This document shows positions 1 through 35,285 of a stretch of 64,000 nucleotides of DNA, piece by piece (the stretch's first letter is position 1; every line of letters begins with the position of its first letter). A model generated the notes under the pieces. That model searched no databases and had not been told where the DNA came from. It saw only the letters and a program-made list of their open reading frames with translations. A program made the position numbers and the translations under genes. Source of the DNA: Candidatus Nomurabacteria bacterium (GTDB lineage Bacteria > Patescibacteriota > Minisyncoccia > Phycocordibacterales > UBA9973); NCBI GenBank assembly GCA_963832025.1, contig CAWHSF010000003.1, forward strand, positions 79,665 to 143,664, written 5' to 3'.

Positions 1-234
1 TCACTGACGAGTCAGAATTCAACCGAAATCGAATCCTTCAACCTCTCCCATCTATGCTACGCAGACAAAAAACATGCTCAATATCAAGTTATAGTAAAGC
101 TTCTAGGGTCTTTTCGTCTAACTGCAGGTAACCGGCATCTTCACCGGTATTGTATTTTCACCGAGCTGGTCCCCGAGACAGTTCTCCAGTCATTACACCA
201 TTCGTGCGCGTCGGAACTTACCCGACAAGGATTG

Positions 235-273
<39 letters not shown>

Positions 274-1163
274 AGGGCTTATATCAGTCACCATATAATA
301 TTGCTACCATACAACGTCGATATTTGACCTTCTGGCATTGGTCAGGTGTCACCCCCTATACATCCTCTTGCGAGTTCGCAGGGAGCTGTGTTTTTGGTAA
401 ACAGTTGCCAGAGATACTTTCGCTGCGGCCCCTCGACTCGGTGCTAAGCACCTCGCTCGGACCTTCGGCCCAAAACATTTTTCAATATTTCTAGGCTGAA
501 AGTCCTGAGAGAGATACGCATATCAATCGAAGGGCAAGCCTTATCCCGAAGTTACGGCTGCTTTTTTGCCGAGTTCCTTGGGGACCACTCACTCGTTCGT
601 CTTGGTCTACTCGACCTGATCACCTGTGTCGGTTTGCGGTACGGATTCTATATTTATAAGTTTAGAGAGTTTTCTTGGAAGCGTGCTTTGTATCATTATC
701 CTCTGCCGAAGCGAAAACTTTTTGCTTCTCTTTCATGCGCCATTTAAGGCACTCTACGGATTTTCCTATAGAGCATCAATCAAGACACAAACTCAAATCC
801 AATAATGAGCGATACATACTACACTCCGTCACTCCCGTCACTAAATACAGAAGTCAGGGAATATTAACCCTGTGTCCATCGGGTGCGGCTTTCGCCATTC
901 CCTTAGGCCCGACTAACCCTTGGCTGATAGACATTGCCAAGGAAACCTTGATCTTTCGACGTGGGGGTTCTCACCCCATTGCGGTTACTTGTGCCAACAT
1001 TCTTACTTCCACACGCTCCAGAAGCTCTCACGGTCTTCCTTCACAGCAGAGTGGAACACTCTCCTACCACTCGTAGACTTCATCAAGAAGCCAAGCAACT
1101 ATTCTTGATTAGAAATAATTGCTTAGCAATGTAAATATTTTATACTCTCTCACTTGAGAGAGC

Positions 1164-1280
1164 TGGCGGGGATGGTGGGACTCGAACCCACGATCTCCAA
1201 GTTTGAATACATGGCCTTTACTTATGATACCAGCCACTTCTTCTCCACTGGCGCTCTAACCAACTAAGCCACAACCCCGC
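1164..1280 (-). tRNA. tRNA-like unit with ~40-nt expansion in the anticodon-arm region; anticodon not assignable
   Basis: Minus strand: acceptor GGGGTTG/CATCCCC (one T-T mismatch), D arm GCTT-AGTTGGTTA-GAGC, T arm GTGGG-TTCGAGT-CCCAC, 3' GCCA. About 115 nt instead of 76. Confidence 0.35.
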
Positions 1281-1319
1281 GTTTTCTGCGAACAAAGACT
1301 TTAATTTAGATTTAAGAAT

Positions 1320-1420
1320 TGGTCGGACCTGGGCAGATTGAACTGCCACTCCCTGAAGTTTACGGGTTAGCACTTCATGGCATAGGAACGCTCTTTCCAA
1401 CTACCCAAGAGCCAGGTCCG
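1320..1420 (-). tRNA. tRNA-like unit with ~25-nt expansion in the anticodon-arm region; possible GCC anticodon in a non-canonical context
   Basis: Minus strand: 7-8 bp acceptor (C)GGACCTG/CAGGTCC(G) followed by ACCA, D arm CTCTT...AAGAG, T arm GGCAG-TTCAAT-CTGCC (6-nt loop). Internal 6-bp hairpin TGAAGT/ACTTCA. 101 nt. Confidence 0.35.
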
Positions 1421-1450
1421 TAAAACTTTAAATCTAAATTCCAATTGGAT

Positions 1451-1524
1451 TGGCGTTCCAGGGATTCGAACCCTGATATTCGGCTCCAGAGGCCGGTGTC
1501 CTGCCGTTGAACGAGGCGAACGCT
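1451..1524 (-). tRNA. tRNA, anticodon loop CUCUGGA (CUG, Gln by position), atypical D arm
   Basis: Minus strand, 74 nt: acceptor AGCGTTC/GAACGCC (A1-C72 mismatch), anticodon stem CGGC/GCCG, variable ATAT, perfect T arm CAGGG-TTCGAAT-CCCTG. Confidence 0.55.
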
Positions 1525-2332
1525 TTTGAAGTTGAAAAAGTTACTATGCTTGTTTTCACCAGCACACTAATTTCTCAACTCCTTCCAATTTTTTACTAAA
1601 ACAAAGAACAATTTTTTCTTGATGAAGTCTACGAATCCTCAAATTCGGTAATATACTTAGCCCCAATTATTTTCGGCGCAAAATCTCTAGATGAGTGAGC
1701 TGTTACGCTATCTTTAAAGGATGGCTGCTTCTAAGCCAACCTCCTCATTGTTAAAGAAATCTCACCTTCTTGTCTTACACTTAGTATATATTTAGGGACC
1801 TTAAATGAGATCCGGGCTGTTTCCCTTTTGACCAATGGAGCTTAGCCCCCACGGCCTAACTGCCGAGCTATGGTCTCTGGTATTCGGAGTTTGATAGGTT
1901 TCGCGAGATTTCTCCCTGTCGAGACCTTCCAGTGCTCTACCCCCAGAGGAAACACTCGACGCTAGCCCAAAAGCTATTTCGGAGAGAACCAGCTATTACC
2001 AGGTTCGATTAGCTTTTCACTCCTTACCACAAGTCATCGGAAGACGTTGTACGATCTACCCGTTCGGACCTCCACAGATCTTTCGACCTACTTCATCCTG
2101 CTCATGGCAAGCTCACCTGGCTTCGGGTCTTATGCATGCTACTATCAATTAAGATAGCGCGCTATTAACACTCGGTTTCCCTTTGGTTCTGTGGTTTTAG
2201 TCCACTTACCAGCAGCATGAATAAACTCGTTGGCTCATTCTTCAATAGGCACGCTGTCGCAGATCCGAAGACCTGCTTCAACTCCTTGTAGACATATGGT
2301 TTCAGGTCTATTTCACCGCCCTAATCGGGCTG

Positions 2333-2369
<37 letters not shown>

Positions 2370-3000
2370 ATCTTTAAGAATATTTAGTCTTAGCGGTTAG
2401 TTCCGGCTGGATTCCCCCGGCCATTCATGTCCTGGGGTACTCAAGAATAACAATAAAAGAGATAAGAAATTTTCGCTTACAGGACTATCACCCTCTATGG
2501 TGTTGCTTTCCAGCAACTTAAGCTAATAACTTATTTTTTAACTCCTCTTTAAATAAATAAAACATTGTCTACCTTACAACCCCCATCGTATTGCTACTGA
2601 CGGTTTGGGCTCCTTCCTTTTCGCTCGCCGCTACTAAGGAAATGCATATTTGTTTCTTTTCCTCCTGGTACTGAGATGTTTCACTTCCCAGGGTGCGCTC
2701 TTTTATCATAAAGATAAAAATTATCAAGGTTTACTTGATAGGGTTTCCCCATTCGGAAATCTCCGGATCAAAGGTTGCTAAGCACCTCCCCGAAGCTTAT
2801 CGCAGCAACGCCACGTCCTTCATCGCTTCTTAAAGTCAAGGCATCCACCGTACGCCCTTAAATTTCCTGTTAGGAAATTTGAAAACCACATCCCGACTTT
2901 ACGCCGGGAAAAAACAAAGCTAGACTCAAACTTTTTTCACGACCGCTCGTTACTAAAATATTTGCCTTAGCTTTTTTCTGTCTGGGCTAAAAGACCCATC

Positions 3001-3178: not shown

Positions 3179-3310
3179 GTCAACCCGGTAGTAGAGCTTT
3201 GCGATGTGTATAACACATTCCGACCTTTTGCTCGGAATATCGCAAAGTCTCACTACCGGGTCAACCTTGTAAACAAAACTAAAAAAGCACCTCTTTTGAG
3301 GTGCTTTTTT
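3179..3310 (+). ncRNA. candidate small structured RNA (~130 nt), family unknown
   Basis: Perfect TATAAT at 3167-3172. Outer stem acccggtag/ctaccgggt (3183-3191/3253-3261) and ctttgcgat/atcgcaaag (3197-3205/3239-3247) encloses hairpins atgtgtataacacat and attccga...tcggaat. Ends in an intrinsic terminator at 3286-3310. No ORF. Confidence 0.35.
3281..3310. terminator. bidirectional intrinsic terminator
   Basis: aaaaaagcacctc-tttt-gaggtgctttttt; A-run and T-run flank an 8-bp GC-rich stem. Sits directly downstream of the minus-strand CDS ending at 3331. Confidence 0.6.
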
Positions 3311-3330
3311 AGTCTCTAAACTATTAAATT

Positions 3331-4023
3331 TTATTTCTCGTAAGTTGAATGTTCGCCGAGTTTGGAAATCAAACGTCCGGCTGCTTCCTTTCCACCCAAG
3401 CCGAAAGCGAGAGCGCCAGAGAGCGCCAGCATCGCTACTAAGCCTGTGAAGAGAATACTCATGTAATCACCGAGGCCAAGTTTGCCGAGCACGATGATGA
3501 TTGCAAAAATCCAAATGGCATATTTGGCAACCATGGAAAGCATGTGTGCTGATTTCAAATTTACAGATTTTGCGGTAGCTAAAACAAGTTTAGCTAATCC
3601 TTCAGAAACGATAGCTGCGATAATCAAGACAAAAGCTGCGATGACGACTTGTGGTAAAAATCCAAGCACCCCGTCACTCAAAAAAGATGACACATCTGTC
3701 AAACCGACCAAGGAAAGAGAAGGAAGAAGGAAAACGATAATTACAAACCATCTGACGACTTCTCCGACAAAATATCCGGAGTTTAAATTTACTCCAGCCC
3801 TTTTAAAGAAGCTGTCTGCTCCGACAGAAGAGAAGAGGCTATCAATTTTTAAACTACTGAAAACTTGCTGAATGGCTTTGGAAATAAGTGAACCCAAAAG
3901 CCAACCGATTATAAAGAAAACAACCGCTAGGATAAGTCTTGGTGCAAATTGCACAAAACCAAACCACAAACCTTGAAGGGATGTGTTAAAAACGTCACCC
4001 CATGTCATCCAAATATTACTCAT
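3331..4023 (-). CDS. multi-pass membrane protein with repeated conserved-TM-helix modules (MscS N-terminal-like)
   Basis: 230-aa ORF with several long hydrophobic helices and a terminator downstream. Family assignment from sequence pattern only. Confidence 0.55.
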   Translation of the reverse strand: MSNIWMTWGDVFNTSLQGLWFGFVQFAPRLILAVVFFIIGWLLGSLISKAIQQVFSSLKIDSLFSSVGADSFFKRAGVNLNSGYFVGEVVRWFVIIVFLLPSLSLVGLTDVSSFLSDGVLGFLPQVVIAAFVLIIAAIVSEGLAKLVLATAKSVNLKSAHMLSMVAKYAIWIFAIIIVLGKLGLGDYMSILFTGLVAMLALSGALAFGLGGKEAAGRLISKLGEHSTYEK

Positions 4024-4134
4024 AAAATATTATAGTTATTAATAAAACTTACTAATAAATCCGGGTTCGACCCCCGCCTGCAACGCTGTGCGTAAGCACT
4101 GCGGGCAGGTTATAAAAGTTGTATGATTATTATA

Positions 4135-4200
4135 GCAGTTTCTAGACCTTTTTTAAGGCTTGTGTGGATAACTTCTTGCGTTAGGTCTTGCCTAACGCAG
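4135..4200. repeat. 38-nt unit (gcagtttctagaccttttttaaggcttgtgtggataac, 4135-4172) plus REP hairpin tgcgttagg-tcttg-cctaacgca (4177-4199)
   Basis: The 38-mer recurs exactly at 5971-6008 and the hairpin recurs at 5951-5973. The hairpin overlaps the RAYT stop codon. Confidence 0.9.
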
Positions 4201-4851
4201 AGCTAACCAATCAAAAATCTCTTCAATAAATGAGGATTTGTTGGGAAAGTATTTCGGAAATTCTTCTATATTTAAAATCTTGCTCTGAATTCTTTTTTCT
4301 CCAACAAAATCTAGATAGCTTGAGTAGGTATATTTATTTAAATAATTGATGGCTTCTTTTTTGTTTTTAATCCCCCTTTCTTTCCAATCTCTCTGAATAA
4401 GTTTTATTGGGTTTAAATGTATATAAGAAAATAAATATTTCAGATGCTGATCTATGCTTGTATGCTGAGATTTAAATTTACCTTCAAATAATCCACCTGT
4501 TCTTTTATATTTTTTATTGTAATACATTGAATAAGCAGTGCTCAATTTTTGCATAAATTTACTTATTCCACCTTCAACTTTTTCAGTGATTAGTATATGA
4601 AAATGATTTGGCATAATACAATATGCTCCAATACCAACTAGAAGATTTTTTCTCTCTAGCTCATAAACATTAAAATTGATATCTCTATTTAAATCGTAAA
4701 AATTAAAACTTTGATTTGAGTTTGAAACATAGAGTAAGGAAATAAATCTTAAATAATCTCCCTTATCGTGAAAAATTTTCTGTTTACTATTTCCACGATT
4801 ATAGAGGTGATAATACTCACCTTGAGCAAAATTAGTTTCTCTAAAAGACAT
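4192..4851 (-). CDS. rayT: REP-associated tyrosine transposase (RAYT; IS200/IS605 Y1 HUH family)
   Basis: YHLYNRG N-terminal block, HUH motif PNHFHIL, GGLFEGKFKS block, catalytic-Tyr block YIHLNP. Flanked by oppositely oriented REP hairpins. Confidence 0.8.
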   Translation of the reverse strand: MSFRETNFAQGEYYHLYNRGNSKQKIFHDKGDYLRFISLLYVSNSNQSFNFYDLNRDINFNVYELERKNLLVGIGAYCIMPNHFHILITEKVEGGISKFMQKLSTAYSMYYNKKYKRTGGLFEGKFKSQHTSIDQHLKYLFSYIHLNPIKLIQRDWKERGIKNKKEAINYLNKYTYSSYLDFVGEKRIQSKILNIEEFPKYFPNKSSFIEEIFDWLALR

Positions 4852-4872
4852 ATAAATATACTATCAAACATT

Positions 4873-4900
4873 CTCTGCGTTAGGCAAGGCCTAACGCAAG
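4873..4900. repeat. REP hairpin tgcgttagg-caagg-cctaacgca, inverted relative to copies at 4177 and 5951
   Basis: Same 9-bp stem as the 4177-4199 copy; the loop is nearly its reverse complement. Confidence 0.85.
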
Positions 4901-4908
4901 TAAATATT

Positions 4909-5934
4909 TTATTGTTTTACTTTATGAACACAATTTTCTTGAAATCCAGATCCTTGTCCACCATCTTGAATATAAATTCTTCCTCCATTTGGCAATGCAT
5001 CCCATTTCTCATACGGAGGCTTAAGAGAATCTCCTTTACCTTGCGGCGTCTCCCAAGCACTAGTATCTTTCAATAATTTTTCTTTCATTACCTTTTCTAC
5101 CACCTTACGTATCAATGCTGGATCCTGAATAAGTTGTTCTGAAAAAGCTCTTGCTATTGATTCTGGCAACACTATTTCAACACTTAAGCATTGTCCTTGT
5201 CTGCCCGTATAATCTCTCCATTCAGTTTGAGGAATTTGATAAGTAATTCTTACTGCTGGTTCATTTTTTCCAGCGCTAACAATCTCACTATGAAGTACTG
5301 GTTGATATTTCCCTGTAGCTTTTCTTTCGATGCGATCTGGAGTACTTCCCACACCAAACACTCCCTTTCTGCCTTTTATGGTTGATTCCTCATAAACCTC
5401 TTTCATTTCGGGACGAATATCAATAATTTCTCTAATACCATGTTCTTCAACTAATACATTTTTTAAAGTTTTCCCCTGGTTAACATCATTTCTTGAGAGA
5501 AAAACGTGTTCCATCGTTTTCAATGCAGAAGAAGGCATATGCCCATCTTGAATGCGTGTTGAAAGATCTCCAAATCCAGCATATCCTGTTGAGGATAAAT
5601 TTTGTGGAACCGATGTGAATATTCTTATACCACCATCTTGAAGCACCGTATTTATTGTTTTCTCGCGAGATTTTTGTTGCTCAGTCTGACTTTCAACACC
5701 CAGTTTTTTATGCAGAGCTTCCATCTCGGCTTCTTTCTTTTTTCTATTATGCTCTTCTGATTTACGCCAAAGTTCATCCAACTTTCTCCGACTTTCTTCT
5801 AACTCTTGTTCGCTCATTGCATTGCTGGGTGGTTTCTTCTCTGGTGTTTTTTTATATTCCATAGCCCTTGAAAAATCCAGTGTTCCATCTGGTTTTCTTT
5901 CAACACCTACAAAAAGTTTTTTCTCTAGACTCAT
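4909..5934 (-). CDS. hypothetical protein (341 aa), Lys/Glu-rich N-terminal region, no recognisable domain
   Basis: Long uninterrupted ORF bounded on both sides by REP hairpins. Confidence 0.55.
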   Translation of the reverse strand: MSLEKKLFVGVERKPDGTLDFSRAMEYKKTPEKKPPSNAMSEQELEESRRKLDELWRKSEEHNRKKKEAEMEALHKKLGVESQTEQQKSREKTINTVLQDGGIRIFTSVPQNLSSTGYAGFGDLSTRIQDGHMPSSALKTMEHVFLSRNDVNQGKTLKNVLVEEHGIREIIDIRPEMKEVYEESTIKGRKGVFGVGSTPDRIERKATGKYQPVLHSEIVSAGKNEPAVRITYQIPQTEWRDYTGRQGQCLSVEIVLPESIARAFSEQLIQDPALIRKVVEKVMKEKLLKDTSAWETPQGKGDSLKPPYEKWDALPNGGRIYIQDGGQGSGFQENCVHKVKQ

Positions 5935-5950
5935 AATAAAATTAATGTCT

Positions 5951-6016
5951 TGCGTTAGGTCTTGCCTAACGCAGTTTCTAGACCTTTTTTAAGGCTTGTG
6001 TGGATAACCCCCACAC
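5951..6016. repeat. REP hairpin (5951-5973), second copy of the 38-nt unit (5971-6008), then CCCCCACAC-family arm
   Basis: Exact repeat of 4135-4172. gtgtggataacccccacac is itself a hairpin. ccccacacttattgcaaag (6008-6030) pairs with ctttgcgataagtgtggggg (6057-6079). Confidence 0.9.
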
Positions 6017-6048
6017 TTATTGCAAAGATGCTCAAAAGAGCTTTATTT

Positions 6049-6633
6049 TTATAACTTCTTTGCGATAAGTGTGGGGGATAACTCTTTTGCCTGCAAAAGC
6101 ACTTCATGCGGGTAATCTAAAATATCCCGAACTAGCTTGTCGTACATATTTAGCCTATAAAGAAACTCTTTGGTTTCAAAAATTGCATAGACAAGTTCGG
6201 CTCCAATTTCCGCTTCAAGTTTGCGCATACCTTCTTCTATTTTTCCACGTTTCATTTTGTCTCCGACAATCAACAAATCCACTCGACTATCGTCGTTTTT
6301 AATAAAAACACCAGAAACTATGACCAGTTTTACTCGTCCAGCTTTTTTAAAAGTATCCAAGATAGTTTCTCTGTTTAAACTGTCTGAACGAACCAATAAA
6401 TCCTCAAATTCTTCACCATATTTGAAAGAAAAATTGAAAGACCAGCTTACGTCACGCTTTTTTATAAAACCAACAGAAGAAAGCAGTTTGAGTTCACGAC
6501 GAACGATACCGGGGTTTACTCTACTTCTTTTGACAATCTCTTTACTGGAAAAACCTTTATGTTTATTGAGTAGAAAGAGTCGCATGATCTTCACCCGGGC
6601 CGCATTACCCAATATTTTTTCTAGAATTTCCAT
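6049..6633 (-). CDS. winged-helix (ArsR-like) DNA-binding protein with a C-terminal nucleotidyltransferase-like domain
   Basis: N-terminal ARVKIMRLFLLN...SSKEIVKRSRVNPGIVRRELKLLSSVGFIKKR pattern. C-terminal half is a mixed alpha/beta region (VDLLIVGD). Confidence 0.5.
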   Translation of the reverse strand: MEILEKILGNAARVKIMRLFLLNKHKGFSSKEIVKRSRVNPGIVRRELKLLSSVGFIKKRDVSWSFNFSFKYGEEFEDLLVRSDSLNRETILDTFKKAGRVKLVIVSGVFIKNDDSRVDLLIVGDKMKRGKIEEGMRKLEAEIGAELVYAIFETKEFLYRLNMYDKLVRDILDYPHEVLLQAKELSPTLIAKKL

Positions 6634-6679
6634 CTATGCATTGTATCGCTTTCGCTAAAAAAATCAAGGAGAAAATGGA

Positions 6680-6716
6680 GACGTTCGACACCCGCCAGAG
6701 GCGGATGTCGAACGTC
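6680..6716. repeat. 37-nt nested palindrome gacgttcgacacccgcc-aga-ggcggatgtcgaacgtc
   Basis: Inverted-orientation relative of 26661-26697. Lies ~45 nt upstream of the 6633 start codon. Confidence 0.85.
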
Positions 6717-6742
6717 TGGAATTTAATTCTAATACAGTATAT

Positions 6743-9586
6743 TTAATTATGAATCTCAACCGAGCCTTCTGGGTAATTATAGAGCAGAATTCCATTTAAG
6801 TTGCCGATATTATTGCCATTTATATCATCCCAGATAAAACTAGCTTCTGAGCCTAAACCTTCTGATTCACCTATGCTTGTGTCTGCACTTGCTCCTGTAC
6901 CCAAAGTACCGGAAATATTTGCATGAATTTCAAAAGTCTTGGATTGACCAGCTCCAATTCTATAATGATTACCACTACTCCAAGTTTGGTCGCACTCATT
7001 TGTTGGAGTAGTGCCTGAGCAAGAAGAAGTAAGATTTGGAAGAGCAACTCCGTTAGTATCAGTAAGATTTATGGCAGTTATATTGGCTGTACTATTTGCA
7101 CCAGCATTAAGCGACGCGACTACTGGAATTTTAGCCAAGGCGATATCACCGGAAGTGTCAGCGGTCACAGTAAGTGTTCCAAGAAAAACTCTAGTTCCAG
7201 CCGTCAGAGTTACGTTTGAAGATGCTAAGGTTATATTAGGCTTCGAACCAACAAGTGTCATGAAAGGAGAAGCAACTGAAAGATTGTTTAGATATGCAAC
7301 ACTGCTACCAGAAGTATATTTTACAGTGGTGAGAATAATAAAGGCCGAACCAGAAGGAATACCATTTGGCCCAACTGGTGCATAAGAAATGTAAGCAACA
7401 ACATCTGCACCTCCCCCACTAGCAGGAACTGGAATATTTAAACCAGTAAGATATGCAGTACCTCCGACAGCTGGAGCGGTCACTCCATTAACCGTAACTG
7501 AAGTAACATTGCCGTTAACAGTGGCACCTATACCATTCGTAGCAAATTTCAGTTCAGTGATAGTTGAGGCACTACCATTTGAAGCAAAATTAAAATCAAC
7601 CTTCGCAGCATTCTGAGCCCCTACTGTATTTCCTACCGCAATATATTGAGAAGCAGTTGAGTTGCTTGAGACTATAATTGGAGAAGAGAGAACAGAAATT
7701 GTGGTAGTCGTTCCGGAAACAACATTGAACCCATTACTTGTGCCACAAATAGTTGTGCCGGTTTCACAAACTTTAACGGTATAATAACCTACCGCAAACG
7801 AGCTTGGAATTGCCACACTATATGAGGAACCCGAAACACCAGTCGCAAGAATTGTGTTTGTCATTGATTTATCAAAGTACGAAATGTCATATTTATGTGC
7901 GCTTGTAGGACAAACACCACCAGATAAACTAACTGGACAAGCTCCAAACTGAGCTATGGGTGTGATGTCTACCCAACTGATTGTGTGTGTTGAACCTTGT
8001 GCCCATTGTGCGCTACTAGTTGAGGAAGTAATGGTAATTGCTGGAGTCGTTGGCGTTGTTGTTAAAACATTCACTGTCGCAGAAGCACTAGCTGAAACGC
8101 CAGCACTATTTGTACAAGTAACAGAATAATTAGTTGTATTAGTTAAAGTTCCGGTATTAATAGTACCGGACAAACTGTTGGCTCCATTCCAACTATTGTA
8201 ACAAGAAGTTGCATTTGTAGAATTCCAAGTCAAAGTGCTTGAACTACCGTAGGCTATACTCGTTGGATTAGCAACTAAAGTTATAGTTGGAGCTTGGGTT
8301 GTCGTTCCACTGGTTACTGTAAATGACACTGAGTTGCTTGCACCGTTTGCATTTAGCACATATATAGAATAAGTTCCCGGTAATATATTTGTTTCAAAAT
8401 TACTTGAACAGGAAGAAGATTGTACTCCGGGACAACCGCCAGTTGGAATTGTCACTGTCATTGAACTATCATTTGTCACTTGCAAAGTACCATTGTTAAA
8501 ATAATTTGGACCTAATAATTGAGCTGAGGTGGAACCAGATAACCACACACCATATTGTTCACCACCAGTTAATCCCGAAAGAGAACTAAATCCACTACCA
8601 GTTATTGTAACTTGAGTTCCAGTCGGACCTGAGGCTGGAGACAGAGAACTGATAGTCACTGAAGAGGTTGTTGTTGTTGAAACTGGTGTCGTAAATGTTA
8701 CTCCATTCAAAACATTCTTTAATGCAGTAATATCAGCATTATTTACATCCGTGATGCCATTTGACCCCACACTACCGGCAGAAACCTGATCACCAAGATA
8801 AAATTCATAACAATTTCCATTTGTATAACCTGAATAGCTGTATCTATTAAATTCTGTTCCAGCAGCAGCGCTTCCAGCGGAAGTCCAGTTAAAAGGAACC
8901 CCATCAATAGTCGTCGTACCCATACCAGGTGTGCTATTATTTTGCGGATTCAAAGCTAGACATTGAGTTGCATTTAATTGTTGGGTATTTATACTCAAAT
9001 TCAGATATGCCCCATCGAAATCTGTGCTTGGGTATGAAGTTGCAGGAATCTCTACAGTAACTAGAGAAGTTGAATTTGCTAGTTCACCAATTCCATAATC
9101 ACCCAAGGGGTTATTGCTTGTACCTAGAGCACCATTACCCAATTTTTCTGTCCAAGTATTTGGATAGTTAAAACTAACTCCATAAGTACTGTTTGAATAA
9201 GTTTGTGTTGGTGAAACTGGAGTGACTGGTACTATAGGCAAAGGATGTGTTTTGTAATATTGAGTTGCGGCGGCGGCAGTAATTTTTCCATAAATACCGT
9301 CAATCTTGCCGACAGAAAAACCGGCGTTCTCTAGCATTTGTTGAAAGGCCAAAACAGCAGCTCCCCTTGCGCCAATTTGAAATGTCGGAGCAGAAGGAGT
9401 AGTACTACTGGAATTATTTTGCGTTGTAGTAGTCGAACAAGGCTGGCCTGTCAAATAGCTAAACTTATCTCCCGGGGCACAAGCTGAAGGAGTAGTAGGA
9501 GTTGTGCTACAAAGCTGACCGGTCGTGGTGCTATATGGACCAGCACCATTACAACCTGAATCATATGCACTTACCTTTGGAGCCAA
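6743..9586 (-). CDS. large secreted surface protein: Cys-motif repeats, peptidoglycan-binding (PG_binding_1-like) domain, IPT/TIG- and Ig-like beta-sandwich repeats
   Basis: 947-aa ORF. GARGAAVLAFQQMLENAGFSVGKIDGIYG resembles PG-binding; VTISSLSPASGPTGTQVTITGSGF is IPT-like. A signal-peptide-like ATG at 9648 (MKKHIVFSFRFCFIP...) is one nt out of frame across a T-run near 9588. Confidence 0.6.
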   Translation of the reverse strand: MAPKVSAYDSGCNGAGPYSTTTGQLCSTTPTTPSACAPGDKFSYLTGQPCSTTTTQNNSSSTTPSAPTFQIGARGAAVLAFQQMLENAGFSVGKIDGIYGKITAAAATQYYKTHPLPIVPVTPVSPTQTYSNSTYGVSFNYPNTWTEKLGNGALGTSNNPLGDYGIGELANSTSLVTVEIPATSYPSTDFDGAYLNLSINTQQLNATQCLALNPQNNSTPGMGTTTIDGVPFNWTSAGSAAAGTEFNRYSYSGYTNGNCYEFYLGDQVSAGSVGSNGITDVNNADITALKNVLNGVTFTTPVSTTTTSSVTISSLSPASGPTGTQVTITGSGFSSLSGLTGGEQYGVWLSGSTSAQLLGPNYFNNGTLQVTNDSSMTVTIPTGGCPGVQSSSCSSNFETNILPGTYSIYVLNANGASNSVSFTVTSGTTTQAPTITLVANPTSIAYGSSSTLTWNSTNATSCYNSWNGANSLSGTINTGTLTNTTNYSVTCTNSAGVSASASATVNVLTTTPTTPAITITSSTSSAQWAQGSTHTISWVDITPIAQFGACPVSLSGGVCPTSAHKYDISYFDKSMTNTILATGVSGSSYSVAIPSSFAVGYYTVKVCETGTTICGTSNGFNVVSGTTTTISVLSSPIIVSSNSTASQYIAVGNTVGAQNAAKVDFNFASNGSASTITELKFATNGIGATVNGNVTSVTVNGVTAPAVGGTAYLTGLNIPVPASGGGADVVAYISYAPVGPNGIPSGSAFIILTTVKYTSGSSVAYLNNLSVASPFMTLVGSKPNITLASSNVTLTAGTRVFLGTLTVTADTSGDIALAKIPVVASLNAGANSTANITAINLTDTNGVALPNLTSSCSGTTPTNECDQTWSSGNHYRIGAGQSKTFEIHANISGTLGTGASADTSIGESEGLGSEASFIWDDINGNNIGNLNGILLYNYPEGSVEIHN

Positions 9587-12785: not shown

Positions 12786-12810
12786 CGTGTTTTCATTATA
12801 GCATAAGAGC

Positions 12811-12846
12811 CCTGTGGAAAAACCTCCAGACGTTGGACGTCTGGAG
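12811..12846. repeat. GTGGAAAAACC flank plus 23-nt palindrome ctccagacgttggacgtctggag (12824-12846)
   Basis: Core family member, also seen at 17177, 20219, 21729, 22213, 32351 and 35289. Confidence 0.9.
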
Positions 12847-12847
12847 T

Positions 12848-15800
12848 CTAACTCGGAATACTCACATTGATTACGTAAGGAGAAAGGTAATCATCGTATT
12901 CATTGCCTAGAGTATCTTGGATATGAACTTTCAAACGAAACGTTCCGTTTTGTAACAGTCCCCCTTTTGACAAAATACCGTCCCAAGTCTTGGTGCAAGT
13001 ATTAGTGCCATCAACACAACCGGCTCCGGATTGAAATAATTTATAAATACTTGCATCGTCTACGTTTTCAATTTTAACAGACATCCAATTTACATTTTCA
13101 TTCGCGGACAAAAAAAGTGTTAGGTTGTTTGTTAAGGGATTAGTTGTTATATCTCCTGCGATATTGTTGAATGTATAGCTGGTGATTAAAGGTGAGGAAA
13201 CTTGAGCAGGTGGAGACGGAGGATTAGGATTTGGGGCGACTGTTACTGTTACAATATAATTTTGTGTAGAATTATCTTCCGCGGTTACTGTATAAGTGAC
13301 CGGGCTGGTAAAATTCTGAGCTGTTATATTACTCGGACTGATTGAAGCCTTATCGGAAATTGTAATCGTGGGTACCAAAGACGTCACGTCAGTTCCATAC
13401 GGAACGGTCAAAGAAATAGTGTGATTACTTTCATCGACAACACCGACAATACTTGGATTTGAGCCCAAAAAATTAAAAGAGGAAATTATTTTAGCAGAAC
13501 TAAATTGCGGAACTGATTCATTTACAATATAAACAGTTCCGTCGCCACTTTTTATGCCATTTCCGTTAGTACCACTTGCCACAGTTGTGCCTGTAAATGA
13601 TGATGTTTGATAATAAATAGCGATTCTTCCTCCGCCACCTGGACCATAACATATATACGGACAAAATAGCCCTCCACCATTCGCTTGAAAACTTCCTGCA
13701 CCACTCAAGGTATTTGTCGTTATATAAATACTTCCACCACTTGAGGTATTGGCTCCATTGGCTGAGATTGTGCCATTGTTTATAATTGAATTAGCAATAA
13801 ATCGTATGGCGCCTCCTCCTGCGGCATGAGATCCATTACCTCCGCTACCTAAATCTGTCGGCATAGTAGAAGAACCGTATGTCGATGTCGAAGTGTTTAA
13901 ATATCCTACTCCACCATAACTCGCCCCGGCATAATATGGATTAGGATTATTTGGGTCGTAAACAGCCGTAGGAGCTCCGGGTCCAGCAGCTACTCCATAA
14001 CCTTTTGCATCAGCAGAAATGAATGAACCAGAATCAACATTAATATTCTGGATTGCTAAAGAAATCGTTTGCCCCGGAATAATAGAAAGAGAAGAATTTC
14101 CAACCACACTTAAATAACTAGATGTAATTTGTTCGGTACCTGAGAGAGTTAAAGTAGAATTTCTGTTCACCATCAACGTCGGAGCATTTAGTATCTCGCC
14201 TTTTGCTAAAGTAAAAGATGAATTTTGATCAACAATAAAATTATTTTTAGCTGTGATGGTCACCCCATCTTCCGATGTAACTACGGCACCATTTGAAATA
14301 TAAATATCATTGAATAAGAATGGTGCATCTGCTTGAAGAAATTTCCACGATGAACCAGTCAAGAAAAGGTCATCTGTTGATTCATTAAAAAGACCGACGG
14401 TGCCACTTTGCCCGCAAGATTCCGTGTAGCTATCATAACTCCCACATCCTCCTTTCGCATCTATCGTTCCACTGAAATTTGAATTTTGATAATGAACAGC
14501 TATTCGTCCTCCGCCTCCGGGACTTTTGAAATAACCCGATGCCAGAAGATTGCCACCATTCGCATGCACAACACCATTTCCTGTTATGTCATCTGCATTT
14601 ATATAGATACTGCCACCACTACTTGAAGTATTTCCATCGGCAGAAATAATTCCATTGTCAGTAAGAGCACCAGAGACTGCAAGATAGATAGCTCCCCCGC
14701 CACTCGATGCGCCTCCACTTCCTAAATCCATCGGCTTGGTGGCTGAGCCATATGTCGTAGAATAAGAAACACCGCTAAAACTAAATCCACCGTAACTCGC
14801 CCCGACAGAATATTCGGAAGAGATTCCGGGTCCGCTATTTTGACCATATCCTTGTCCATTGGCAGAAATAGAAGAACCAGGATCAATAGTAATATTCTGT
14901 GCATTGATTTTTACTCCCTTGAAAGAATTTGAGGAATTTGGATCACCCTGTAATGTTAAAGTTGCATTATTGGTGATTACCAAGTCTTCATAAGTATATT
15001 CTCCTGAAACCAAAGTAGTATTTTGATCTATTGTTGTAATATCGTGTGAAGGCTGTGGATTTGTTGGTGGAGTATTAGTATCGGAACCTGAGTCCGATGG
15101 TGGATTGGTCGTCGATCCATTTTGATCTGCTGGGTTCTGGTCTGTGCCGGAAGAAGTATTTGACGAGGAATTGTCAGGAGAAGAGTCTGTGGAATTTGAA
15201 GAACTATCATCTGTCGATGATGTATTTTGTGCTGATTGGGGATTTCCTGTTGTTGTTCCAGTAATTGTTCCAGGATTATCTTCCGGAATAGACGTCGTAA
15301 TTTCTCCTCCACCTCCTTTGCCGATAAATGAAGGAAAAGAAGAAACAGGCGGAGCTAATGAGATAATATTTCCGGTGGAAGTATCCTGAAGTGCGGGAGG
15401 TTGTTCGGCTGATGGAGAATTTACTGTTGTATCATTTGTAGTAGGGCTACTCGGCGGCGTCATTTGATTAAGCGCATTTATCGCGTCCCCACTATCATTA
15501 ACCGCTAAATTATTTATATCGTTTGCAGCCGGAGCAAAAAAAGAAGAAACGGAAGAAATTGCCGAACCGGTAATATTTGCAGTTGTATTGCCTACAGCAA
15601 CAGCAACACTACTCACACCATTGGCTACATAAACGAGAGCATCTTGTGCTGTAATTGTCACAGGGTCGAGAATAGACAAAACAGTACCTTGAATTTTCTG
15701 CGCTAGGGTTAATTTCGGGGGGTTGATACAAAGAGAATTTTCATCTTGAATATTATTATTTTTTAATTTATTTAAAGAAGTTTTTATATCAGACACAATT

Positions 15801-17032: not shown

Positions 17033-17164
17033 GAGCGATACCTAGGACAAGATACAGCCCGACTAAAATCAAAAAAGCCCACATTAATATTTTAAAAATT
17101 TTGCGCGTAAAAAATATTTTTATTTTTTCCATTATTAAATTGTATGCCGAAGATAAAATTGCAG

Positions 17165-17279
17165 AAGTGGAAAAACCTCCAGACGTTGGACGTCTGTAAG
17201 GATACAGACGTCCAACGTCTGGAGGCTGATGTTGGACATCTGCTAAAGCAGGTGTACAACATCATTCAACGTCTGGAGG
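17165..17279. repeat. composite repeat: GTGGAAAAACC, 49-nt double palindrome (17177-17225), gatgttggacatctgctaaagcaggtgtacaacatc (17228-17263), aacgtctggagg
   Basis: Members of two families fused. Lies ~33 nt upstream of the 17132 ATG. Confidence 0.9.
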
Positions 17280-19363: not shown

Positions 19364-19410
19364 TGTGGATAACCCCCACACCTTTTGTTTTAAACGAAAG
19401 GTATGGGTTA
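19364..19410. repeat. ctgtggataac plus CCCCCACAC-family hairpin (cccacaccttt / aaaggtatggg)
   Basis: Immediately 3' of the second RAYT gene's stop codon. Confidence 0.8.
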
Positions 19411-19413
19411 ATT

Positions 19414-20097
19414 TTATACTTCCTGTGACAGCTCTTCTTCCAGCCCCAGAAAAGAAGAAACTTCTTTTCTTTGTTCCCTAATTACAGAGGACACCTTTAG
19501 GCACTCATTCTTGAAGTTATTGTTGGTACCAAAAAAACTGAGCAGGTTCTTCGCTTCTTTTTTGGACACAACATTAAAATCCATGTTTTCGTATTCAGCA
19601 TCACTGGACAAAATCAACTCCCGCTTTTCTTCGGGAATATTGTGAATCATGTGATTGATATTCACATATGGAAAAATTTTCAAAAAATATTTATTGTTTT
19701 TAATTAAGCTTGATTTAAACCTGCCTTGAAACAAAGCGCCATTCCTTTTATGCACCAAATTGAAATATTTCGTATAGCCACCGAGTAATCTTTTTAAAAA
19801 TTCGGAGATGCCTCCATCTACTTCTTGTTTTAAAATAAAATGAAAGTGATTCGGATTGAGACAATAACAAACAACAGCAACTAAGTTCCCTTCCTTGCTT
19901 TTTCTTTTCAAGCGTCGAGAAAATAACTTGTCTCGTGAATTGTCCCTGATACTACCAACCGGATAAATTTTATTGAATTGTTTTATGCTCAAAACAAAAC
20001 GATTGAGGTCCTTCTTATTCATAAAGATATCCCTCTTATCGACTCCTCTGTTGTAAATGTGATAATACTCGTTAGTTACAAGCGGATGTTTTCTCAT
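19414..20097 (-). CDS. rayT: REP-associated tyrosine transposase (RAYT-like, HUH Y1 family), second copy
   Basis: YYHIYNRGV, HUH motif NPNHFHFIL, GALFQGRFKS. Tyr block is degenerate (PYVNINHMIH). Start taken at the internal Met. Confidence 0.7.
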   Translation of the reverse strand: MRKHPLVTNEYYHIYNRGVDKRDIFMNKKDLNRFVLSIKQFNKIYPVGSIRDNSRDKLFSRRLKRKSKEGNLVAVVCYCLNPNHFHFILKQEVDGGISEFLKRLLGGYTKYFNLVHKRNGALFQGRFKSSLIKNNKYFLKIFPYVNINHMIHNIPEEKRELILSSDAEYENMDFNVVSKKEAKNLLSFFGTNNNFKNECLKVSSVIREQRKEVSSFLGLEEELSQEV

Positions 20098-20206
20098 AAA
20101 ATAATAAAAAATTTCTAGAGGAACGCGACCAGAAATTAAAAACAATTTATAAAAACTAAGCTTAATTAAGCTATTTAGTAATCATAGCGAAAAACTTCAT
20201 GAAGTC

Positions 20207-20266
20207 ATGTGGATAACCCTCCAGACGTTGGACGTCTGTAAGCTTACAGACGTCCAACGTCTGGAG
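20207..20266. repeat. catgtggataacc flank plus perfect 48-nt palindrome (20219-20266)
   Basis: ctccagacgttggacgtctgtaag|cttacagacgtccaacgtctggag. An identical copy sits at 35289-35336. Confidence 0.95.
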
Positions 20267-20276
20267 CTAGAACTAG

Positions 20277-20474
20277 TTACCAGGGGTAGCCGAAGAGAAG
20301 CAAGAGAACGAGGATGACGATAAAAAGGATGAGTAGGACATACACAAGATGCATCCAATCCGTGGGACGATTGTGTTTGGTCATGTAATTTTTATATATA
20401 TCAAGGCCTTTGTGGAAAATAAGAATCGGCAGGATGGCTATCAAAAACCAGGCTTTAAATAATATTTCAAACAT
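20277..20474 (-). CDS. small two-TM membrane protein (65 aa)
   Basis: Two hydrophobic helices; bounded by palindromic elements on both sides. Confidence 0.45.
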   Translation of the reverse strand: MFEILFKAWFLIAILPILIFHKGLDIYKNYMTKHNRPTDWMHLVYVLLILFIVILVLLLLFGYPW

Positions 20475-21696: not shown

Positions 21697-21717
21697 TTGG
21701 GGTGCAATTGATAAAAA

Positions 21718-21835
21718 AGTGGATAACCCTCCAGACGTTGGACGTCTGTAAGGTTACAGACGTCCACGTCTGGAGACTCCCCTTTTGGGGTGCTCCTAAG
21801 ACGCAAAAAACCACCCCCGAAGGATTGGTTTTTTG
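21718..21835. repeat. ~118-nt composite: agtggataacc, 47-nt double palindrome (21729-21775, 1-nt deletion), ccccttttgggg...aagacgcaaaaaacc-hairpin-ttttttg
   Basis: Same layout as 22203-22325. Confidence 0.9.
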
Positions 21836-21907: not shown

Positions 21908-22198
21908 TTATGTAACTAACTTAATTCCGACTTTTTCTGCGATTGGTTTTATCCATTCTTCATGTCTATTTATCTGATTTTTTATAGCAGCATATTCTAA
22001 TGTTAAGTCACCTATTGATTTTGCAACAGAATCACTGGAAATAATGACGCCCTGAACGAGCTCTTTTAAATCTCCCAAGTCGCTTTTAACCTCTTCAACA
22101 TCTTTCTTTGAAGCAAGGACGGAAGTGAGTCTATCTATATCTTTATCATCTAACATTTCCCCATTATAGCAACTAAAATGGTTTGCGCAAATTAACAA
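21908..22198 (-). CDS. small coiled-coil protein (start possibly at the internal Met at 22156)
   Basis: MLDDKDIDRLTSVLASKKDVEEVKSDLGDLKELVQG...; bounded by repeats. Confidence 0.5.
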   Translation of the reverse strand: MLICANHFSCYNGEMLDDKDIDRLTSVLASKKDVEEVKSDLGDLKELVQGVIISSDSVAKSIGDLTLEYAAIKNQINRHEEWIKPIAEKVGIKLVT

Positions 22199-22202
22199 AT
22201 AA

Positions 22203-22325
22203 GTGCATAAACCTCCAGACGTTGGACGTCTGTAAGAGTCCGGACGTCCAACGTCTGGAGGGCCCCGTTTGGGGTGGCTCCTCCAAGACGCAAAAAACCA
22301 CCCCGGTAAGGGGTGGTTTTTTGTT
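22203..22325. repeat. ~120-nt composite: gtgcataaacc, 48-nt double palindrome (22213-22260), ccccgtttgggg...aagacgcaaaaaaccacccc-ggtaa-ggggtggttttttg
   Basis: Second copy of the 21718-21835 layout. The terminator hairpin is perfect here. Confidence 0.9.
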
Positions 22326-26520: not shown

Positions 26521-26700
26521 TATGTGGATAACTCGCCATGTAGGCGAGCCACTCCAGCTATATGTTCTCATACTTTTATACGGATTGCAAGGAGAAATGG
26601 GTGCTTTGAGATAAATAGGAGCGCCGAGACGTTGGACGTCAGCTGGAGATTCAAATTCATGACGTTGGACATCCGCCTCTGGCGGGTGTCCAACGTCTAG
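26521..26700. repeat. repeat cluster: atgtggataac plus tcgcc-atgta-ggcga hairpin, gagacgttggacgtc, 37-nt gacgttggacatccgcc-tct-ggcgggtgtccaacgtc (26661-26697)
   Basis: Three family members in 180 nt; the last is the partner of 6680-6716. Confidence 0.85.
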
Positions 26701-26711: not shown

Positions 26712-27578
26712 CTATTTCAAAAAATATCTACTCCAACGCTTCTCTCCGGTCTTATCAAGGACGTTGTCTTTTACCATAGAAACTAGCTCGCGCTGCAATG
26801 TCTTTTCACTGCAAACTATAAGGACATTAAATTTTTCAGTGTGTGCTTGGGCTTTGTCCTTTATGTCCTTTATGGTAGCTCCCCCTGTTATTGTTTTAAT
26901 TATAGCTATGATGCTTTCACGTCGCTGTCTTTTAAGAATATTAAACCCCGCATCAAATCCTTCACGGGCAGAGATATTTTTATCGGACACAGAAATATGT
27001 CTTAGGGCTTTCAATAAAGTGCTTCCCTTTTGAACGCCAAGATTGGTGGAATTGTGATGTCCGATAACCTGACGTCGGACATCTGCTAAAGCAGGTGTCC
27101 GACGTCTCTCCTCATCGAGAGTAGAATTTGCAAAAAATTCTGCTAAATTTATCTCCTTGTTTGATATATCAGCCTTGTTTGTGGAATCCAAAATAGATTG
27201 ATTCAATTCAGAAAATTCCTTCTTTAAGATATTGCAATTCATCTCGGAAATAATATTCACCGCGGAAGCAATCTCTAAAAAGGACATGATTTCGGCTATC
27301 TTGTTACTCATAAAAGACAATGTGTGCCCGGTATTATTTCGTTGTAATAAATGTATGTCCGTTATGATTTCAGCGCCCAATGTCCTTAATTTATTTCTTA
27401 GAGGTTCGTCTTTGTCTATGATGTCCGTAACCATGTAAAGAGCTGTAATTAGCTTATCTGTTTTAGTATAAGAACCCACCATAAAAATCGCTGTTTGGTA
27501 TGGAACAGGCACAGAGGAAGAAGTGTCTTTTACAGAGTTTTTATTAGAGTCCTTGAGATTTTTTTCATCTCTAAACAT
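26712..27578 (-). CDS. hypothetical protein (288 aa) with probable C-terminal winged-helix domain
   Basis: C-terminal ...SEKTLQRELVSMVKDNVLDKTGEKRWSRYFLK pattern. Contains an in-frame palindromic insert. Confidence 0.55.
   Translation of the reverse strand: MFRDEKNLKDSNKNSVKDTSSSVPVPYQTAIFMVGSYTKTDKLITALYMVTDIIDKDEPLRNKLRTLGAEIITDIHLLQRNNTGHTLSFMSNKIAEIMSFLEIASAVNIISEMNCNILKKEFSELNQSILDSTNKADISNKEINLAEFFANSTLDEERRRTPALADVRRQVIGHHNSTNLGVQKGSTLLKALRHISVSDKNISAREGFDAGFNILKRQRRESIIAIIKTITGGATIKDIKDKAQAHTEKFNVLIVCSEKTLQRELVSMVKDNVLDKTGEKRWSRYFLK
27071..27106. repeat. 36-nt palindrome gacgtcggacatctgctaaagcaggtgtccgacgtc inside the 288-aa ORF
   Basis: Same core (ctgctaaagcag) as the intergenic copies at 17228 and 20561. 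Preceded by cgataacc. 12 codons (RRTPALADVRRQ). Confidence 0.85.
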
Positions 27579-31768: not shown

Positions 31769-32350
31769 ATGTCACAATTACAATACAATGAAATTCGCGA
31801 GAAGAAAATCATTATTCATGACGATGAGCCGTGCGAGGTCGTGGAGTCCCATGTCGCCCGCACTCAGCAACGCAAACCGCAAAACCAGGTAAAACTAAGA
31901 AGCTTAATTTCCGGCAAGGTCTTCCCTGCCACTTTCCACGTTTCCGATTCAGCCGATGAAGCAGATATGGAGAAACGCGAAGTTACTTTCCTGTATCACA
32001 ATAAGGGTGAATATTGGTTTTGTGATCCCACAGACAAAAGTAAAAGATTTAAACTGGACGAAGCATTGCTCGGAGATACGGTAAAATTTTTAAAAGAAAA
32101 CAGCAATGTCACCGCTTTGGTTTGGACAAACGAAGACGAAGAAGAAAAAATCATCAAATTAAGCATGCCTATCAAAATGGAATTTAAGGTAAAAGAAGCT
32201 CCGCCGGCGGTGCGCGGAGACACTTCTAAGGGAGGGATCAAGGTTATCATTTTAGAAAATGGAGCCAAGCTCAATGCTCCGATGTTCGTAAACGAAGGAG
32301 ATATCATTCGGGTAAATACGGAAACCGGAGATTACGTGGAGCGAGTCTAG
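31769..32350 (+). CDS. efp: elongation factor P
   Basis: 193 aa with an EF-P three-domain pattern, ending GDIIRVNTETGDYVERV. TAGTAT lies 6 nt upstream of the ATG. Confidence 0.85.
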   Translation: MSQLQYNEIREKKIIIHDDEPCEVVESHVARTQQRKPQNQVKLRSLISGKVFPATFHVSDSADEADMEKREVTFLYHNKGEYWFCDPTDKSKRFKLDEALLGDTVKFLKENSNVTALVWTNEDEEEKIIKLSMPIKMEFKVKEAPPAVRGDTSKGGIKVIILENGAKLNAPMFVNEGDIIRVNTETGDYVERV

Positions 32351-32384: not shown

Positions 32385-32387
32385 ATC

Positions 32388-35251: not shown

Positions 35252-35285
35252 ACTAGCAAAAAGCCCTGAAAAAGTAAAGTTTATT

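Follow-up and report, generated by a model that had tools for sequence, protein, structure and literature searches.

A RAYT-like transposase with its REP hairpins and a passenger gene: a probable insertion with duplicated host sequence in a Patescibacteria genome

Repetitive extragenic palindromic (REP) sequences and the REP-associated tyrosine transposases (RAYTs) that accompany them are the textbook example of an immobile, "domesticated" transposase whose role is the maintenance of short palindromes; nearly all work on them concerns Proteobacteria. Group 1 RAYTs have been reported from 21 bacterial classes (Bertels et al. 2017, PMC5581495), and no description of RAYT/REP systems in the candidate phyla radiation (CPR) was found in the literature searched. 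The canonical arrangement, a RAYT gene between oppositely oriented cognate hairpins (here at 4177–4199 and 4876–4898), is what the initial annotation of the DNA described here had proposed, and it is what we find. This DNA is a 64,000-nt stretch from Candidatus Nomurabacteria bacterium (the window; all coordinates are window positions), in which a 1.84-kb unit at 4135–6008 carries a RAYT-like gene, three REP hairpins and a passenger gene between an upstream HTH gene and a downstream MscS-like gene. We consider it probable that this RAYT-REP unit and its passenger were inserted into the short spacer between the two host genes, with duplication of host sequence. What is new here is a CPR RAYT-REP unit, a variable passenger slot and an insertion with host-sequence duplication; the RAYT kind itself was already known. 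The genome is, as had been supposed, of the CPR/Patescibacteria type, and the presence of a RAYT in it, put forward as a departure, holds as an occurrence but not as a novelty, being an extension of a distribution already documented outside Proteobacteria (PMC5581495).

Re-examination of the sequence reproduced exactly the annotated coordinates of the 38-mers, the hairpins and the open reading frames (ORFs), and with them the order 38-mer, REP, RAYT, inverted REP, 341-aa ORF, REP and 38-mer. The genes of the unit and both neighbours are on the minus strand. Upstream is the host gene encoding a helix-turn-helix protein (HTH; 6049–6633, 194 aa, weak winged-helix signals), the conserved left-hand neighbour, and downstream, as the equally conserved right-hand neighbour, is the host gene for a 230-aa membrane protein (MSC; 3331–4023) with an MscS-type N-terminal transmembrane (TM) helix (Pfam MS_channel_1st_1, 48.4 bits). 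Between them, in the direction of transcription, lie 38-mer copy B (5971–6008, minus strand), which adjoins HTH; REP hairpin 3 (5951–5973, loop TCTTG), which is in the 5' leader of the passenger gene and overlaps copy B by its last 3 nt; the passenger gene itself (ORF341, 4909–5934, 341 aa), between inverted REPs; hairpin 2 (REP', 4876–4898, loop CAAGG), 11 nt past the ORF341 stop codon and inverted relative to hairpins 1 and 3; the RAYT leader (4852–4875) and the RAYT gene (4192–4851); hairpin 1 (4177–4199, loop TCTTG on the plus strand); and 38-mer copy A (4135–4172, minus strand), with the TATAAT −10 box of the MSC promoter (4129–4134, minus strand) directly outside it.

Relatives of the HTH protein were searched for, giving 80 syntenic metagenomic loci (70–85% identity); with the window and the loci L025 and L177 added, both neighbours were present at 76 loci. 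The initial annotation had proposed comparing relatives for the presence of the unit, and it is absent from 69 of the 76: here, HTH and MSC are adjacent, 59–299 nt apart (median 116), and nearly all of the empty gaps hold a single recognizable 38-mer core. Since the neighbours are adjacent with one 38-mer in so many relatives, the 1.84-kb unit is a real insertion. Six distinct loci are filled, and a host segment is duplicated in all six. The window has REP, ORF341, REP', RAYT and REP; L177/L178 has a 121-aa gene, a REP, a 101-aa gene on the other strand, REP' and a RAYT that is 98% identical; L025, which is the same as L131, has a 173-aa membrane protein in the slot of ORF341; and L103 has a TM ORF of ~90 aa there. 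At L153, a RAYT paralogue (45% identical) is accompanied by different hairpins and two other genes, and L162 holds a 631-aa secreted protein without RAYT or REP. A neighbour-joining tree of the concatenated flank proteins, which included the filled window, L025, L103 and L153 (L177 and L162 dropped out), placed the filled loci in separate clades, each with empty sister taxa.

The window contains exactly two copies of the 38-mer, GCAGTTTCTAGACCTTTTTTAAGGCTTGTGTGGATAAC, at 4135–4172 and 5971–6008, compared to 0 expected in shuffled sequences. No further match with up to three mismatches was found in the window, and the sequence is unstructured as single-stranded DNA (ssDNA; z-score −0.15). The initial annotation had regarded it as the boundary of the element. 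It is shown instead to be host DNA, consisting of the last ~10 HTH codons in the relatives plus the −35 box and spacer of the MSC promoter, because the single copy in the empty sites encodes the end of HTH (GAG TTA TCC ACA CAA GCC TTA AAA AAG GTC TAG, or ...ELSTQALKKV*) and stops 0–1 nt short of the TATAAT box, which is conserved in these relatives. The best sigma70-like match in the region 3200–6800 is TTAAAA (in copy A)-16 nt-TG-TATAAT (4134–4129), which agrees at 10 of 12 positions. The insert falls between the 38-mer and the −10 box. Copy A (also "D2"), the promoter-upstream sequence native to MSC, starts 4 nt past the 3' REP of the RAYT and retains the MSC promoter beside TATAAT; copy B ("D1"), the duplicated copy, retains the end of the upstream gene and has REP sequence in place of the −10 box. 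Because the 3' end of hairpin 3 and the 5' end of copy B are the same three bases (GCA), the unambiguous duplication is 35–38 nt.

RAYT orthologues with 79–87% identity are found at entirely different sites (L182, L192 and L197), and flanking duplications recur at several sites. At L182, the RAYT is 87% identical and lies upstream of a gene of the glucosamine-6-P-isomerase family; a 321-aa gene, REP', RAYT and REP are enclosed by a different exact 38-nt repeat that spans the stop codon of the upstream gene, with 5 nt separating the end of its second copy from the TATAAT box that follows. The duplicated segment at L051 is 46 nt of a uvrB-like 3' end (80% identity), and that at L034 is 122 nt of a dnaE-like 3' end (90% identity). 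No orthologues of the genes flanking L182, L034 and L051 were found in the window. The segment that is duplicated is in every case the 3' end of the co-oriented gene lying upstream. The second copy starts 2–6 nt past the 3' REP of the RAYT in all seven RAYT cases, at four unrelated sites, while the other junction is variable, being a REP in the window, L025 and L103, but not in L177, L182, L034 and L051. Over the sites, the duplications range from 33 to 122 nt in length, which argues against a fixed staggered cut.

Most differences between diverged copies are synonymous in the frame of the upstream gene. There are five synonymous and no non-synonymous differences in L025 and four synonymous and two non-synonymous in L162; in L034, 12 nt differ with 2 aa changes in 40 codons, and in L051, 9 nt with 1 aa change in 15 codons. 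The copies therefore resemble functional alleles of diverged lineages rather than a relic decaying in place, a pattern that suggests import by recombination. That the two copies in the window are identical points either to gene conversion or to a very recent event involving genomes that were nearly identical. That copy D2 of L025 is the foreign one was considered and rejected: D2 and its leader are most similar to L025's own clade.

The 219-aa product of the RAYT gene had been read as a Y1/HUH transposase, and the profile search bears this out. The protein matches Pfam Y1_Tnp (PF01797) with 38.3 bits, above the gathering threshold of 23 (E = 1.6e-9). In alignments of 15 and 30 sequences, which took in orthologues and paralogues of 29–46% identity, N82-H83-F84-H85 (NHFH, with H83 and H85 forming the HUH motif) and N147 are invariant, and the catalytic Y143 is invariant or nearly so. 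The AlphaFold (AF2) model has a predicted local distance difference test score (pLDDT) of 72, and its top Foldseek match is 4ER8_A, the E. coli RAYT–REP complex (E = 3.9e-4, probability 1.00), with a template modelling score of just 0.39–0.49 at that pLDDT; the IS608, ISDra2 and IS200 transposases come next. From these profile and model matches, the protein is accepted as a predicted HUH/Y1 enzyme that is RAYT-like but far removed from the proteobacterial equivalogs. Its family is very large, with 7268 homologues at E < 1e-5. The 120 nearest of them are all ~219 aa long, and wherever a source is named for these, it is a Patescibacteria, Paceibacterota or Nomurabacteria metagenome-assembled genome (MAG).

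The gene is tightly interlocked with its hairpins. Its stop codon TAG (complement of 4192–4194) and last ~2 codons lie inside hairpin 1, as had been noticed from the sequence, and the stop codon is within the 3' REP in every RAYT orthologue inspected, as ...LR* or ...ALGKT*. On the 5' side, the distance from REP' to the ATG is 24–26 nt in the close orthologues inspected and is longer only in L034 (71% identical). The 24-nt leader of the window gene, gagaatgTTTGATAgTATATTtat-ATG, is conserved in comparison with orthologues, and the close orthologues have a conserved tTTGATAtTATATT after REP', ahead of the RAYT ATG. It is possible that the leader serves as a promoter, with a −35 box, TTGCCT, provided by the loop and arm of REP'. 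Together, REP', the HUH/Y1 gene and the stop-containing REP form a stereotyped RAYT unit of ~722 nt. There is one copy of this RAYT subfamily in the window.

A second Y1_Tnp-like gene is found at 19414–20145 (minus strand). It is 37% identical to the RAYT and scores 22.8 bits, at the Pfam threshold. The palindromes around it are different (19374–19407, CCCCACACC..., and 20218–20266, CTCCAGACG...), and the genome may have more than one RAYT/hairpin pair.

The hairpin, TGCGTTAGG-N5-CCTAACGCA, is present three times in the window, compared to 0.03 expected. The loop is TCTTG in the outer two copies, and CAAGG in the middle one corresponds to the reverse orientation plus one change. As ssDNA, the hairpins form a 9–10 bp stem with ΔG of −9.9 to −11.1 kcal/mol (z-scores −4.6 to −7.8). 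The initial annotation had held that its reading would be refuted by a hairpin confined to this locus. The three copies in the 64-kb window are indeed local, but across genomes the hairpin recurs: when one genome per GTDB species was scanned for the exact pattern, 105 copies in 93 stretches were found, and 93 of these copies were in 49 CPR-type assemblies, each a species representative. The CPR copies nearly all have the loop TCTTG/CAAGA or CCTTG/CAAGG, while the 12 copies from cyanobacteria, Bacteroidales and others have unrelated loops and are no more than chance would give (8.7 expected). Copy numbers are low (1–10 exact copies per MAG), and ~60 of the 93 CPR copies are away from any RAYT. 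Hairpins that are dispersed occur as singlets, and where two are paired, genes lie between them and the distance is at least ~700 nt. Pairs ~699 nt apart enclose orthologous RAYTs (71–84% identity) in the census stretches, and the same hairpin surrounds orthologous RAYTs (71–98% identity) at at least 15 other loci. In a position-frequency table of 101 oriented copies, the only flanking preferences are Y at −1/−2 and R at +24, and no GTAG/CGTC-type tetranucleotide tag is conserved beside the hairpin. No REP was found in viral contigs. The hairpin is an exactly conserved, low-copy family in the CPR, alike in stem and loop across 49 species.

In other CPR genomes, 21 of 87 canonical-loop copies are inside long ORFs, in one orientation and frame, and encode the peptide CVRQDLTQ. 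These ORFs belong to housekeeping genes (RNase HI-, DapF-, LigA-, TruB-, ArgS-, KsgA-, LeuS- and RsmI-like). These copies represent ~12 independent sites of one orientation, some of them common to several species, among the loci L008–L096 (L010:4720, L032:4807, L048:4483, L074:5917, L013:5120 and L016:1292, and further L093:3960, L030:4590, L071:6114, L055:3890 and L059:2099). A 4.7-kb contig binned as Ignavibacteriaceae (L017, JALNWB010000240.1) contains a CPR RAYT (77% identity) and two canonical REPs, and is probably a mis-binned Patescibacteria contig.

ORF341 had been seen as part of a two-gene mobile module. The module stands as an insertion, but not as a fixed gene pair, since the content of the slot varies and homologues of ORF341 occur elsewhere without RAYT or REP. 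Among the filled relatives, its slot is taken by the 173-aa membrane protein (TM173), by the ~90-aa TM ORF or by the 121-aa and 101-aa ORFs. The protein has no Pfam, NCBIfam or PHROG family and only 24 homologues in 5.8 billion clusters. Its AlphaFold (AF2) model is confident, with a pLDDT of 86, but has no fold match in the PDB or BFVD. In four other contexts, homologues have no RAYT, REP or 38-mer nearby; one adjoins a phage-type integrase and another is in a tandem array of hypothetical genes. ORF341 is a passenger and not a partner of the RAYT. A functional partnership was considered and rejected, as no conserved linkage was found, and so was a phage origin, for which there was no PHROG, viral-contig, BFVD or PDB match; no viral contig encoded a relative. 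At L190:2965–8316, the homologue P0015 lies in a same-strand run of hypothetical genes (328, 317, 466 and 533 aa), and its upstream region and N-terminus (MPNFEM...) are repeated ahead of the next downstream gene. It may be that the ORF341 family belongs to a paralogous array that is expanding.

How could such an insertion have duplicated the end of the upstream gene? By homology to E. coli TnpA-REP and IS608 TnpA, the RAYT would bind the REP hairpins on ssDNA and cut next to them, forming a 5'-phosphotyrosine bond and freeing a 3'-OH. The module might have arrived on DNA of a related lineage, in which it was already sitting just after the same upstream gene. One side would be resolved by homologous recombination within the upstream gene, and the other side would be provided by the 3'-OH end from cleavage beside the 3' REP of the RAYT. 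If this REP-terminated end were joined tens of nt upstream in the recipient, by the RAYT or illegitimately, the interval would be duplicated. Such a model implies cleavage 0–6 nt 3' of CCTAACGCA and joining between ...AAAGA and GTTATCCAC. The direct repeats would then permit precise loss, and an excised circle, if formed, would show the junction ...CCTAACGCAAGAA + 38-mer + CGTTAGG.... Taken on its own, this import and joining origin of the duplication is a tentative proposal.

Several observations weigh against an insertion of this kind. A single old gain with many precise losses since would account for the patchy distribution of the unit equally well. The three REP copies of the window are all at the RAYT locus, with no dispersal within 64 kb, and its two 38-mers are identical and carry no donor or recipient signal. 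In L103, the one codon that differs between the copies is non-synonymous. No long flanking repeat was found at at least seven other RAYT sites: L192 (between methyltransferase and cupin genes), L197 (between MurJ and LepA), L027, L020, L066, L075 and L012. At L162, the same type of duplication surrounds the 631-aa gene without RAYT or REP; the mechanism of duplication therefore need not involve a RAYT, and the role of the RAYT in joining is unproven. The proposed cleavage and excision steps are drawn from homology and sequence patterns. The enzyme itself scores 43 bits with the NCBIfam equivalog NF047646 REP_Tyr_transpos, under the 80-bit cutoff, and is thus related to the proteobacterial RAYTs without being their equivalog. 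When the PDB was searched by sequence, either with the protein alone or with a profile, the best match was ISDra2 TnpA at E = 0.12 only, so that the structural route was needed.

In one alternative to insertion, the RAYT is domesticated and immobile, the module and the duplicated 38-mer are ancestral, and the 69 "empty" relatives have lost the module via the repeats. Recombination or slippage would restore a perfect single copy, and the window copies would have been made identical by gene conversion. This would be in keeping with the typically single-copy, vertically inherited nature of RAYTs (PMC5581495), with the shared site, orientation and junction positions in window/L177, L025 and L103, and with the divergence of the copies in L025 and L103, as for an old duplication; direct repeats of 33–39 nt would also ease precise deletion. 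However, it requires at least 5–6 independent precise losses on the tree of the flanking genes, and RAYT orthologues occupy entirely different sites at L182, L192 and L197. The L153 paralogue and the L162 non-RAYT gene are at the same site with lineage-specific duplications of their own, and mostly synonymous differences are unexpected if one copy had been a non-coding relic since it was duplicated in situ. We therefore regard this explanation as unlikely.

It is harder still to see the RAYT and REPs as mere cargo, like ORF341, at a RAYT-independent hotspot of gene gain driven by homology-facilitated illegitimate recombination (HFIR) anchored in HTH. If the position of the join were random, the second copy would be unlikely to start 2–6 nt from the 3' REP in seven of seven RAYT cases at four sites, and RAYT units, found at many sites in related genomes, always have both REPs at fixed distances. 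Such a hotspot would nevertheless fit L162, where the 631-aa gene sits at the same site with a ~50-nt duplication (38-mer plus TATAAT), as well as the heterogeneous left junctions, which often lack a REP (L177, L182, L034 and L051). Synonymous copy differences fit any recombinational import. On this evidence, a hotspot that owes nothing to the RAYT appears improbable.

The exact 38-nt direct repeat on both sides of the unit might also be taken for functional ends or att sites, that is, terminal direct repeats for a recombinase. This is very improbable, and already contradicted by the single copy of the 38-mer in the 69 empty sites, where it encodes the C-terminus of the neighbouring gene; the sequence is nowhere else in the window, unrelated repeats of 38–122 nt flank the units at other sites, and no integrase or other recombinase was found in the unit among the ORFs and Pfam matches. 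Finally, a chimeric join at a short repeat during assembly is scarcely credible: a Logan contig from ERR11523672, an independent assembly, matches window 4143–6000 with 0 mismatches, so that the layout, with its internal 1.86 kb at 100% identity, is not an artefact of the source record, and the assemblies of no fewer than four other metagenomes (L025/L131, L103, L177 and L178) show the same architecture. That the contig breaks precisely within the 38-mer might have favoured such a join, but it is a k-mer effect, the repeat being longer than k; for the same reason, the contig boundary was rejected as a sign of a circle or an empty site. Exact-protein look-ups gave no strain-level empty site, the matches being from the same sample only.

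Other features of the window are of interest in their own right. The 3' end of HTH contains a 70-nt palindromic element (6008–6077), flanked by GGATAAC direct repeats at 6002–6008 and 6076–6082, with a perfect stem CCCCACACTTATTGCAAAG...CTTTGCGATAAGTGTGGGG (ΔG −25.3 kcal/mol, z-score −9). It changes the C-terminus of HTH from ...ELSTQALKKV to ...ELSPTLIAKKL*, and is present in L100, L102 and L177 but missing from most relatives. The 9-mer GTGGATAAC, which at this locus encodes the HTH codons E-L-S-T, is enriched, with six exact copies in the window, all on the plus strand, and 21 copies compared to ~5 expected over the window and the CPR loci. It was rejected as a DnaA-box cluster or promoter element behind the 38-mer, as anything from 13 to 34 nt separates it from TATAAT and copies are found between convergent genes as well. 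The 5' leader of MSC (4024–4128, and the leaders of L098–L176) has a conserved motif, ATAACTTTAATAAGGTCGAAAC, which in the window and some relatives is split by a GC-rich hairpin (window 4077–4109, ΔG −16.6 kcal/mol; GCCTGCCTGCCGGCAGGCAGG in L098 and L101). A GGTTCGA-containing hairpin at 4060–4110 was considered as a tRNA fragment and rejected: ARAGORN found no tRNA in the window, and the structure is a variable hairpin of the MSC leader.

Further long GC-rich palindromes of at least two families, on CTCCAGACGTTGGACGTCTG... and GATGTTGGACATCTGC..., are mostly intergenic (12807–12871, 17160–17278, 20202–20278, 21712–21776, 22196–22262, 32342–32385 and 35272–35348; also 6679–6733, 26647–26698 and 27069–27121). 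They usually abut a 9-mer like GTGGATAAC or GTGGAAAAA (the perfect DnaA-box sequence is TGTGGATAA), and TATAAT follows on the gene strand ~13–34 nt beyond; the 9-mer may be a target, the tail of a terminator or a site for a regulator. A 49-nt C/G-rich palindromic repeat (CCCCCTCCTTTCTCCTCCCCCTTAGTAAGGGGGAGG...) has three copies (36229–36277, 36629–36677 and 37235–37283) around an ORF at 36677–37231. The window starts within a 23S rRNA gene (1–2871, minus strand), whose 2871 nt cover only model positions 1–2195, so that the gene must contain insertions. Two matches to the Rfam tRNA model lie within it on the same strand (1167–1278 and 1454–1521; 48.8 and 37.1 bits), for which ARAGORN gave none.

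To the textbook picture, the locus adds a large CPR RAYT family (7268 homologues) with a hairpin conserved base for base over ~50 species, and a gene unit whose position differs between relatives, beside a slot of passenger turnover. The flanking duplications with synonymous differences are a testable trace of gene entry into the tightly packed genomes of uncultured bacteria. If joining is shown to take place at the REP end, HUH chemistry would gain a new outcome; otherwise, the locus remains a clean, natural case of gene gain by recombination. A bolder proposal, and one that we would not expect to hold, is that Patescibacteria RAYT-REP units are still active and cargo-carrying, with HUH chemistry joining the 3' REP end and homology resolving the other side, while the hairpins also colonise genes in frame. 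If true, it would be a one-ended, "non-disruptive" insertion in which 30–120 nt of target are duplicated and both the end of the upstream gene and the downstream promoter are preserved, and RAYT units would shuttle neighbouring genes between related species with ultra-compact genomes.

Among known systems, the E. coli RAYT (TnpA-REP/YafM; PDB 4ER8) shares the HUH/Y1 fold and the inverted cognate hairpins around the gene. The two proteins are only 14% identical in the fold alignment, however, and the window protein has a C-terminal extension of ~70 aa. Here, the REP includes the stop codon, and REP' lies at a near-constant 24–26 nt from the ATG; the hairpin lacks a GTAG-type tag, having only the pyrimidine/purine flank preference, and is present in 1–10 exact copies per MAG rather than hundreds. 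This lack of a tag also sets it apart from the GTAG-/CGTC-tagged REP superfamilies (Di Nocera et al. 2013, PMC3733652). Like the REPIN-RAYT systems of Pseudomonas and Enterobacteria (Bertels & Rainey 2011; PMC3116915, PMC5581495), the CPR system has a single RAYT outnumbered by its palindromes, in an association kept over long evolutionary times. Unlike REPINs, the CPR hairpins are mostly singlets rather than inverted doublets with a short spacer, and their 9-bp stem and loop are identical over 49 species, whereas REPIN sequences are usually lineage-specific. In addition, 21 of the 87 canonical-loop copies are inside coding genes, and the RAYT unit is at different sites in relatives and polymorphic at the orthologous site.

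With the IS200/IS605 elements (IS608 and ISDra2 TnpA), the unit shares the Y1 HUH fold, subterminal ssDNA hairpins, a compact size and the lack of terminal inverted repeats. The hairpins of these elements have the same orientation and there is no target duplication, whereas here the hairpins are inverted, the duplication is 38 nt, and long flanking duplications (33–122 nt) are found at several sites. There is no tnpB in the unit among its ORFs and Pfam matches, and no second identical copy in the window. The unit is neither an IS200/IS605 element nor a REPIN population. It also differs from an integrative element with att sites, having no integrase and a repeat that is the host sequence of the empty site and differs between sites.

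Rickettsia palindromic elements are in-frame insertions of 100–150 nt in genes. The 21 CPR cases of palindromes in frame within housekeeping genes are similar, but these inserts are 24–27 nt long and linked to a RAYT, and the window has no intragenic REP besides the 3' end of the RAYT itself. In HFIR and in one-ended HUH transposition with gene capture (IS91/ISCR and Helitrons), one end is defined by the element and the other is variable. The present locus is alike in that the 3' REP defines one end, adjacent genes are carried and one junction is in homologous DNA. An IS91-type rolling-circle Rep is absent here, the capture is upstream of the transposase, and the 3' end of the anchor gene is duplicated rather than deleted, by a putative mechanism read from sequence patterns.

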